A stretch of 16,210 bases of DNA from a virus (taxonomy: Duplodnaviria > Heunggongvirae > Uroviricota > Caudoviricetes). Positions 2,732-3,167 of the stretch are shown piece by piece. Both the position numbers and the translations under genes were made by a program. Each line of letters starts with the position of its first letter. Positions within the stretch are counted from its first letter, which is position 1. The notes under the pieces were generated by a model. It did no database searches, was not told the DNA's origin, and worked only from the letters and a program-made list of their open reading frames with translations. Where the stretch lies: the IMG/VR virus record IMGVR_UViG_2534681773_000025, one strand, 5' to 3'.

Positions 2732-2755
2732 AAAAAAGCCTTCACTGAGGAAGGC
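2732..2755 (-). terminator. Rho-independent terminator overlapping the stop of the 106-aa ORF
   Basis: Minus strand: GCCUUC-cucagu-GAAGGC followed by UUUUUUA. Confidence 0.5.
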
Positions 2756-3062
2756 GTCTGTAACAACCGAACTGATAATCTGCCAGACCCGCCATAACAA
2801 GCTGGGTCAGTATTAACTGGCAGCGTTCGCGTGAAAGATAAGTGTTCTGCGCAATTTCCCCGGCGGTCGCCGGTTCGGTGACGCTTAATTCATTAAACAC
2901 CACTCTGGCGGTTTCGGTCATATCCTGCTGTTTTAGCATGCCTTTTTCCATTTTCCGGTTAACGTGACATACCAATAACTCTTGTCGAAAAAGCCAGCAA
3001 GTTGAAAGACCGGTATTAGCAACCACCAGCGCGTTTAACGCCCCGTGCCGTTTTTCAGTCAT
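2742..3062 (-). CDS. Hypothetical 106-aa ORF between two terminators; coding status uncertain
   Basis: The start ATG abuts the T-run of the upstream terminator with no ribosome-binding site. An internal ATG (MTETARVV...) has only a weak AGGA one base upstream. No recognisable motif. Confidence 0.3.
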   Translation of the reverse strand: MTEKRHGALNALVVANTGLSTCWLFRQELLVCHVNRKMEKGMLKQQDMTETARVVFNELSVTEPATAGEIAQNTYLSRERCQLILTQLVMAGLADYQFGCYRRLPQ

Positions 3063-3086
3063 AAAAAAACCCGCAAAAAGCGGGCT
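3063..3086 (-). terminator. tR'-like intrinsic terminator downstream of the Q-position gene
   Basis: Minus strand: GCCCGC-uuuuu-GCGGG followed by a 7-U run, about 75 bp after the stop of the 188-aa gene. This matches the lambdoid Q - pR' - tR' layout. Confidence 0.6.
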
Positions 3087-3092
3087 CTTTCA

Positions 3093-3167
3093 AATGTCCA
3101 TGTCTGCTATTCGCCTCGCGGTACAGCTTTGCGAAGCTTACCGGAATTGAAGCAGTTTTTACGTCAA
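3093..3167 (-). promoter_or_regulatory. Candidate late promoter (pR'-like) and antiterminator engagement region
   Basis: Inferred from position between the Q-like gene and the terminator. A TTGACG hexamer overlaps the stop of the upstream gene, but no convincing -10 at 17 +/- 1 bp was found by eye. Confidence 0.25.

Follow-up and report, generated by a model that had tools for sequence, protein, structure and literature searches.

The window analysed here is the whole 16,210-nucleotide stretch of the IMG/VR virus record IMGVR_UViG_2534681773_000025 (Caudoviricetes), and the segment under study lies between positions 2,732 and 3,167, where all features are on the minus strand. Read along this strand, the gene order is DUF968, rusA, a DUF1133 gene in the position of the late antiterminator gene Q, the studied segment, an N6/N4 DNA methylase gene and three tRNA genes. 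A prophage of Escherichia coli O111:H2 strain 12A is 99.9% identical and continues into esterase, holin, lysozyme, Rz-like and terminase genes, so that the segment marks where the early-right region of a lambdoid E. coli prophage passes into the late region. About 965 of 5,426 complete E. coli genomes contain 80% or more of the 5.5-kb stretch compared. From the gene homologies, conservation, coding signal, hairpins and synteny observed at the locus, it is probable that the segment joins the start of a late operon, consisting of a Q21-family DUF1133 antiterminator, a late promoter (pR'), a sigma-dependent pause element (SDPE) and a terminator (tR'), to a real gene of 65 codons that belongs to a mobile cassette. 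The features are listed below, with the basis of each call in parentheses and the two genes upstream of Q last.

3718-3164, minus strand: Q-position gene, encoding a 184-residue DUF1133 protein (Pfam, PDB and PHROG matches)
3174-3146, minus strand: predicted late promoter pR' (read from the sequence, and conservation)
3140-3135, minus strand: -10-like hexamer TAAGCT, candidate SDPE (conservation and position)
3139-3064, minus strand: predicted pR'-to-tR' RNA of about 72-76 nt (promoter and T1 geometry)
3092-3063, minus strand: T1, the putative tR', a strong predicted intrinsic terminator (folding and conservation)
3062-2940, minus strand: non-coding leader, the first 41 codons (123 nt) of a 106-codon open reading frame (frame, periodicity and alignment)
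3001-2964, minus strand: near-invariant leader box (alignments of 27 loci)
2939-2742, minus strand: winged-helix gene of 65 codons, L23 of phage phiP27, PHROG 331 (annotation, conservation, periodicity and AlphaFold2)
2755-2732, minus strand: T2, hairpin and U-run over the stop codon (terminator scan, folding and comparison of 27 loci)
2731-2592, minus strand: apparently structured spacer, the methylase gene's 5' untranslated region (alignment, pairing and RNAalifold)
2591-1533, minus strand: N6/N4 DNA methyltransferase gene, 352 residues (Pfam N6_N4_Mtase, E = 6e-44; PHROG 67)
1492-1243, minus strand: three tRNA genes with anticodons CAT, TCG and TCT (ARAGORN and Rfam)
5148-4093, minus strand: DUF968 gene
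4092-3727, minus strand: rusA

The Q-position gene, its predicted late promoter and the first terminator

A lambdoid Q cassette is defined by a Q gene, pR', a promoter-proximal -10-like SDPE, a terminator and the late genes (bioRxiv 10.1101/651190). The Q21 cassette described in that work resembles the present unit in its gene order, in the kinds of element, in the -10-like element after the predicted promoter and in the lysis genes downstream, and the strong intrinsic terminator lies here about 75 nt from the predicted start. The DUF1133 unit is an uncharacterised example of a well-known kind of system, and pR'/tR' is textbook biology. On the downstream side, the 99.9% identical prophage carries lysis and morphogenesis genes on the same strand, as a Q-dependent late cassette does.

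Immediately upstream of the segment lies a putative antiterminator gene of the kind that such a cassette calls for. The Q-position product matches Pfam DUF1133 (E = 4e-105) and PHROG 753, named 'anti-termination protein Q-like' (E = 5e-81), and scores 33.1 bits, over the 26-bit cut-off, with Phage_antitermQ (PF06530), the Q21/Q933W family of the published structural study of Q21 (Yin, Kaelber and Ebright; bioRxiv 10.1101/651190). A sequence search of the PDB returned only the Q21 chains 6p18 and 6jnx (E = 5e-4), with an alignment covering residues 6-31 and 53-155, which is most of Q21; the similarity is distant, and Q21 has 162 residues as against the 184 of the DUF1133 protein. The start at 3718 (M-I-Y-P) is invariant among the homologues and is also the start annotated by the Prokaryotic Genome Annotation Pipeline (PGAP). 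These homologues number in the hundreds in E. coli, Salmonella, Citrobacter and Klebsiella, and a few of them carry the source names 'antiterminator' or 'late gene regulator'. The DUF1133 protein is best read, from these matches, as a distant member of the Q21 antiterminator family. A literature search on 'DUF1133' gave no match, and the subfamily, although very common in E. coli and Salmonella prophages, is still labelled a 'domain of unknown function'; the present analysis provides a concrete and testable map of the predicted promoter, pause element, start and terminator for it.

The -35 hexamer of the predicted promoter, TTGCTT (3174-3169), overlaps the last Q codons and is separated by a 17-nt spacer from the -10 hexamer TTCAAT (3151-3146), which is preceded by the extended -10 element TGc (3154-3152). 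Five nucleotides past the -10 hexamer, at about -1 to +5, comes the hexamer TAAGCT, whose position matches that of the SDPE in the published Q cassette layout; it is followed by the conserved GCTTCGCAAAGCTGTACCGCGAGGC, by about 20 variable nucleotides and then by the terminator. Eleven aligned cassettes from four genera (E. coli, Salmonella, Klebsiella and Providencia) were compared, and all 11 show the pattern TTGnnn-17-(TGc)TTCAAT-5-TAnGCT, with TA-N-GCT retained throughout and its third base variable (A, C, T or G). Geometry is kept in the distant cassettes while the letters differ: the Klebsiella cassette (60% protein identity) reads TTGCAA-17-TTGAAT-5-TAGGCT and the Providencia cassette (43% identity) TTGACT-16-TATAGT-5-TATATG/TATGCT, each with its own hairpin and U-run. 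Roughly 60 nt past the Q stop codon are conserved wherever the DUF1133 gene occurs. In phage pPE4 the block, from about the -35 hexamer on, recurs behind an unrelated open reading frame, and the unit is therefore independent of the Q coding sequence. An initial annotation of this segment, made from its letters and open reading frames, had placed promoter activity within 3093-3167; a promoter-like block is found there, but its predicted -35 hexamer falls just outside that span, within the end of the Q gene. TAAGCT was also considered as a true sigma-70 -10 hexamer, which would give an RNA of 66 nt, and was rejected, there being no -35 hexamer at 16-18 nt and TTGACG lying 21 nt away.

The core stem of T1 pairs CCCGC (3084-3080) with GCGGG (3074-3070) around a UUUUU loop and is followed by a U-run of seven residues (3069-3063). 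Extended by A:U pairs to 3092-3062, the hairpin has a folding energy of -18.2 kcal/mol (z = -5.4), equalled by none of 200 shuffles. In its distance from the predicted promoter it agrees with the terminator of a Q cassette, which lies a short way past pR'. A simple terminator scan listed T2 and left T1 unlisted, and terminator-like sites are not enriched in the whole window (21, against 15.4 +/- 4.9 expected); both hairpins stand above chance because they are conserved among related loci. T1 is retained behind DUF1133 and pR' whatever comes next: of 86 viral-contig loci surveyed downstream of DUF1133, about half had the winged-helix cassette there and the others had tRNAs or other DNA. Its variants include CCCGC-TTTTT-GCGGG, CCCGCC-ATTGA-GCGGG and CCCGCC-ATCGT-GCGGG.

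The terminator is kept from the other side as well. Among 27 loci from more than 10 genera, which formed the comparative set for the small-gene cassette, a hairpin with a T-run stands 83-128 nt upstream of the small-gene ATG in 24, with diverse stems and loops; the Q genes upstream of the cassette belong to different families, and the terminator occupies an equivalent position nonetheless. The homology of the window to phiP27 and to phages carrying the Shiga toxin 2 genes (Stx2 phages) starts at 3074, within the T1 hairpin. Because it is kept from both sides, and because that homology begins inside it, T1 is both the end of the Q unit and a mosaic joint.

We infer promoter activity, start site, pausing and Q-dependent read-through from the sequence and its conservation. 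RNA polymerase carrying sigma-70 would pause at TAAGCT and be loaded there with Q. Without Q, transcription would end at T1 and yield an RNA of about 75 nt, predicted to start at about A3139 and to end in the U-run; with Q, the polymerase would read through T1, the leader, the winged-helix gene, T2, the spacer, the methylase gene and the tRNAs into the lysis genes. The earlier proposal of a lambdoid pR'/tR' unit with a short terminated RNA gains support in this way from the Q21-family match, from the promoter block conserved in four genera and from the retention of T1. For the short RNA, a 5' hairpin (GCUUCGC/GCGAGGC or AGCUU/AAGCU) was tried and rejected, as variants mismatch without compensating and Providencia keeps neither helix.

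The gene of 65 codons and its leader

The initial annotation described two terminator-like hairpins around an open reading frame without a ribosome-binding site, and this arrangement was confirmed, with T1 at 3092-3063, an ATG at 3062 and T2 at 2755-2732. The ATG abuts the T1 U-run, lacks a purine-rich Shine-Dalgarno sequence and opens a frame that runs mechanically for 106 codons (3062-2742). Only its 3' part is a gene. PGAP annotates, on the near-identical E. coli O111:H2 prophage, a coding sequence of exactly 2939-2742 (65 residues, WP_000917751.1), and L23 of phiP27 also has 65 residues in RefSeq, under the name 'TrmB family transcriptional regulator'. Conservation starts exactly at Met42 of the long frame, which is an invariant Met1 of the 65-residue protein, and the ATG at 2939 is preceded at 8-10 nt, in nearly all loci, by a purine-rich GGA/AGG Shine-Dalgarno sequence. 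Codon-position entropies of 0.58/0.51/1.28 over 2939-2742 give a clear coding signal, with the variation concentrated at the third position, as against 0.92/0.79/0.75, without 3-nt periodicity, in the conserved core of the leader. The protein is conserved to 40-50% identity in Plesiomonas, Mixta and Mangrovibacter and shares a conserved CQLILTQL helix.

It is very improbable that translation instead begins at ATG 3062 and that the whole frame makes a real, longer protein. Gene callers have given products of 106 residues in many E. coli copies, some of them named 'lipoprotein' or 'hypothetical protein', and the frame is open in the window; yet it is open from the post-terminator ATG in only 2 of the 27 loci, and a stop lies at most nine codons upstream of the conserved start in 12. 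In place of ATG 3062, phiP27 has GCG and other relatives have ATA or GTG, and in Stx2_14040 a 1-nt deletion past this codon shifts the frame. The N-terminal extensions of the called proteins are unrelated between genera or lie in other frames, the conserved core of the leader shows no codon periodicity, a U-run stands upstream in place of a Shine-Dalgarno sequence, and both PGAP and RefSeq give 65 residues. The 106-codon frame is an over-extended reading of a real gene, and the comparison corrects a recurrent annotation error by which products of 106 to 144 residues are called for it. U-runs of tR'-type terminators are very often followed by an ATG (TTTTTATG), and the unrelated cassettes of Klebsiella and Providencia are no exception. 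This ATG is not conserved inside homologous sets; gene callers therefore open spurious reading frames at terminators.

The opposite suggestion, made in the initial annotation, was that all of 3062-2742 might be a transcribed leader or non-coding RNA. It holds for the first 123 nt (3062-2940), which are non-coding and open by chance in this lineage, and fails for the last 198 nt (2939-2742), where the third-position variation, the invariant Met1, the CQLILTQL helix and the conservation in distant genera all mark a protein; for the segment as a whole we give it hardly any credence. The lack of a ribosome-binding site likewise stands for ATG 3062 and falls for the real start at 2939.

A winged-helix fold of the product is supported by modelling. 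AlphaFold2 predicts three helices and a beta-hairpin wing with a predicted local distance difference test score (pLDDT) of 90.4, and Foldseek aligns the model with generic winged-helix domains, namely IclR, MarR, Z-alpha and the N-terminal domains of O-methyltransferases. The TrmB family (Pfam PF01978) is matched with 17.4 bits (E = 0.004), under its 25.6-bit cut-off, so that the protein is not counted as a TrmB member; no NCBIfam model matched, and a sequence search of the PDB gave nothing significant.

The leader contains one near-invariant element. This box consists of CTTGCTG, about 12 variable nucleotides and (C)AGAGTTAT-CTGTATGTCA, and reads CAAGAGTTATTGGTATGTCAC in the window; in its short form, CTTGCTG-N12-(C)AGAGTTATCTGTATGTCA, it stands at a fixed 39-43 nt before the small-gene ATG, and the positions CTTG, AGAG and T.T are invariant in all 27 loci. 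It is possibly a cassette promoter (TTGCTG-17-TATTGG/TATCTG) or an operator, the promoter reading being uncertain because the T usual at -7 is missing from the -10-like hexamer.

Taken as a promoter, the box opens another reading of the two hairpins, which we regard as a real possibility, somewhat short of probable: T1 and T2 would bracket an autonomous 'moron', whose winged-helix gene, and perhaps the methylase gene, would be expressed in the lysogen from TTGCTG (3000-2995) and TATTGG (2977-2972), 17 nt apart, with T1 insulating the cassette from pR' and T2 attenuating transcription into the methylase gene. The near-invariance of the box in the 27 loci and its fixed distance to the ATG speak for this reading, as do the 17-nt spacing and a G at -14, which suit sigma-70, and the occurrence of the cassette after Q genes of different families, in each case closely preceded by a terminator. 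The critical last position of the -10-like hexamer is, however, G and not T in about 90% of the loci, a consensus scan found no promoter at the box, and the conserved run extends beyond the length required of a promoter and so points to an operator or an RNA element. The two readings are compatible, and read-through driven by Q from pR' could operate in addition to a promoter of the cassette's own.

The first roughly 42 nt past T1 (3062 to about 3021; ATGACTGAAAAACGGCACGGGGCGTTAAACGCGCTGGTGG) form a separate mosaic module, which is missing from the cassette loci with a short leader (hairpin about 84 nt from the ATG) and is present in DUF1133 loci that have no cassette and run straight into a tRNA (L085 and L094).

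The stop-codon hairpin, the spacer and the methylase cassette

T2 is formed by GCCTTC-CTCAGT-GAAGGC (2755-2738), a stem of 6 bp with four G-C pairs, followed by TTTTTT (2737-2732), and the TGA stop codon (2744-2742) straddles its loop and 3' arm. In the window it has the form of an intrinsic terminator, a G+C-rich hairpin immediately followed by a U-run, while its energy (-9.5 kcal/mol, z = -0.8, 42 of 200 shuffles as good) is no better than chance. The comparison is more telling: a hairpin lies over or next to the stop codon of the small gene in 27 of 27 loci, with at least eight different stem sequences, and the non-coding 3' arm changes to match changes in the coding 5' arm (RLPQ, KRLQ, RCQ and others). 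These matched changes indicate that the T2 hairpin is under selection. The U-run is less constant, with six or more T among the 8 nt past the stem in only 11 of the 27 loci and four or fewer in 12. The second terminator of the initial annotation therefore stands as a conserved hairpin with a good U-run in this lineage, and gives way in about half of the relatives, where the U-run is degenerate. In this lineage T2 is probably a weak to moderate intrinsic terminator, a label that can be trusted only in lineages of this kind; the hairpin could just as well stabilise the 3' end or belong to the downstream RNA.

In 25 of 26 genome loci the methylase gene begins 147-154 nt past the small gene. The spacer between them is more conserved than the coding sequence on either side (mean column identity 77-84%), varies by 1-nt insertions and deletions across more than 10 genera, and has a consensus fold, according to RNAalifold, of a hairpin A at about 2721-2675 and a composite hairpin B at about 2667-2593. 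Hairpin B ends 2 nt before the methylase AUG, which has no Shine-Dalgarno sequence nearby. In a structure of 39 pairs set by hand, 94.6% of the cells are paired, against 27-46% when the partners are slid, and six pairs are changed on both sides, against 1.0 +/- 0.8 in shuffles (none of 500 as many). This covariation comes from the 26 genome loci, a metagenome scan with the methylase having returned only relatives of at least 82% identity; it is thin because the spacer sequence is so conserved, and it derives mostly from three divergent loci. The spacer matches no Rfam family. It is a candidate for a new cis-regulatory RNA, and the most novel lead of this analysis.

Together, the winged-helix gene, the leader box, the stop-codon hairpin, the spacer and the methylase gene could form a self-contained, self-regulating cassette in which the spacer would be a new cis-regulatory RNA that gates translation of the methylase, perhaps by way of the winged-helix protein or of a small ligand; we advance this idea tentatively, as one that may well prove wrong. 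The winged-helix gene, spacer and methylase gene form a mobile unit that sits behind the tR' of several Q types, including those of Stx2 phages, and the methylase cassette may have spread in this way behind the tR' of many lambdoid prophages.

Related copies of the cassette lie upstream of toxin genes. From window position 3074 on, the small gene, spacer and methylase gene are 90-95% identical to L23/L24 of phiP27 and to the region between Q and stx of Stx2 phages, with the same order of terminator, small gene, methylase and tRNAs; phiP27 and Stx2_14040 share the order Q, small gene, methylase, tRNAs and stx. Unlike the present prophage, these phages have a Q21-type Q gene with its own pR' sequence, and stx after the tRNAs, where a DUF1133 gene and an empty stx position are found here. 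Many Stx2 phages thus contain, between Q and stx, a fixed cassette of winged-helix gene, structured RNA and methylase gene, which all toxin transcription must cross, and its two hairpin or terminator elements and its RNA could therefore affect the amounts of toxin and lysis transcripts.

The order of small gene, methylase gene and three tRNAs in the window is that found upstream of stx2 in phiP27 and in several Stx2 phages. No toxin genes follow the tRNAs here, and the identical prophage has only a pseudogene remnant of 126 nt before its esterase gene. Just downstream of the tRNAs, in the position held by stx in Stx phages, the small RNA STnc100 was matched above threshold (Rfam, 138 bits; 976-1166, minus strand).

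Comparison with characterised short RNAs of late regions

Three kinds of short RNA from late regions invite comparison with the predicted pR'-to-tR' transcript. StxS, the pR' transcript of Sp5/Sp15, and the lambda 6S RNA are precedents for such RNAs (Sy et al. 2020, PMC7547250): they too are short RNAs from an antiterminated late promoter, made constitutively and stopped at tR' in lysogeny, and in relatives of this prophage the corresponding late transcript leads to stx. StxS differs in belonging to the cassette of another Q family, with no sequence similarity found, and in having a precursor of 258 nt, against a predicted primary transcript of about 75 nt. HnrS (EcOnc10-12), a multicopy prophage small RNA of 66 nt in enterohaemorrhagic and enteropathogenic E. 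coli (PMC13502914), is likewise a short terminator-ended RNA from the late region of lambdoid prophages, in strains positive for the locus of enterocyte effacement. Pairing between the predicted RNA and hha gave no signal (-14 kcal/mol at best, where the window as a whole gives a background of -10 +/- 3), and the absent hha complementarity suggests, without proving it, that the two RNAs are not identical. The best hha complement of the window (545-580, -28.7 kcal/mol) lies in the coding sequence of a nanS-like esterase, lacks a terminator and was treated as chance.

IsrK of Salmonella Gifsy-1 is the closest in layout. This short terminated RNA, characterised by experiment, is made directly downstream of the Q-like gene antQ and unlocks in trans the translation of the orf45-anrP genes that follow (Hershko-Shalev et al. 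2016, PMC4825925). The antQ-isrK-orf45-anrP locus shares with the window a Q-like gene, a short RNA ended by a Rho-independent terminator and then an open reading frame, and differs in that the promoter block here is of another sequence class and is followed by the winged-helix and methylase genes and not by orf45 and anrP. Searches against Rfam gave nothing at gathering score within 2570-3300, the sole suggestive match being the isrK model (RF01394), which aligns over its full length (1-77) with 3137-3064 at 19.8 bits (E = 0.02-0.08), the gathering score being 50. The DUF1133 gene of pPE4, 83% identical to that of the window, is followed by a bona fide IsrK (74.4 bits), and both kinds of downstream unit therefore belong to one Q subfamily.

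A circuit of the IsrK type, in which the post-terminator frame would become translatable through the short pR' RNA acting in trans on the read-through transcript, has in its favour the layout (PMC4825925), the weak full-length model match and the true IsrK carried behind DUF1133 genes in related phages. It remains very unlikely, since the best duplex between the RNA and the leader (-20.9 kcal/mol) does not stand out from those with shuffled leaders (-19.6 +/- 2.5, 25% of shuffles as good), the genes downstream have no relation to orf45 or anrP, and the post-terminator ATG is not conserved.

Several observations weigh against reading the segment as a Q-dependent late-operon start. The Q21 similarity is distant, as its E value indicates; the -35 hexamer of pR' agrees with the consensus at only three of six positions, and a strict consensus scan listed no promoter there because this hexamer is weak. 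The isrK match is far below threshold, and the 5' helix of that model has no compensatory support in the variants seen. T2, finally, is a weak hairpin with a U-run that varies between loci, and its terminator label is therefore lineage-specific. Set against these points are the protein matches to the Q21 family, the promoter geometry of the 11 cassettes and the retention of T1, and the late-operon reading is preferred.

Some related phages show further arrangements of the same parts. In phage vB_Apl-pPE4 (2502-4000), whose record bears the label of an Actinobacillus phage although E. coli DNA matches this region at 86% identity, the DUF1133 gene is followed by the true IsrK, a C4-like antisense RNA (76 bits) and an open reading frame, after which comes a second pR'/terminator block of the window's type, so that two late-type promoter units stand in tandem. 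In phiP27 (1594-3000) the Q gene is followed first by a GIY-YIG nuclease gene and then by a pR'-like sequence with its terminator, and in Stx2_14040 the same pR'-like sequence and terminator follow Q directly, without the nuclease gene between them; the phiP27 gene looks like an insertion of the homing-endonuclease type that separates Q from its promoter region. Elsewhere in the window, the sok antitoxin RNA of a hok/sok module was matched above threshold (Rfam, 114 bits; 7963-8137, minus strand).

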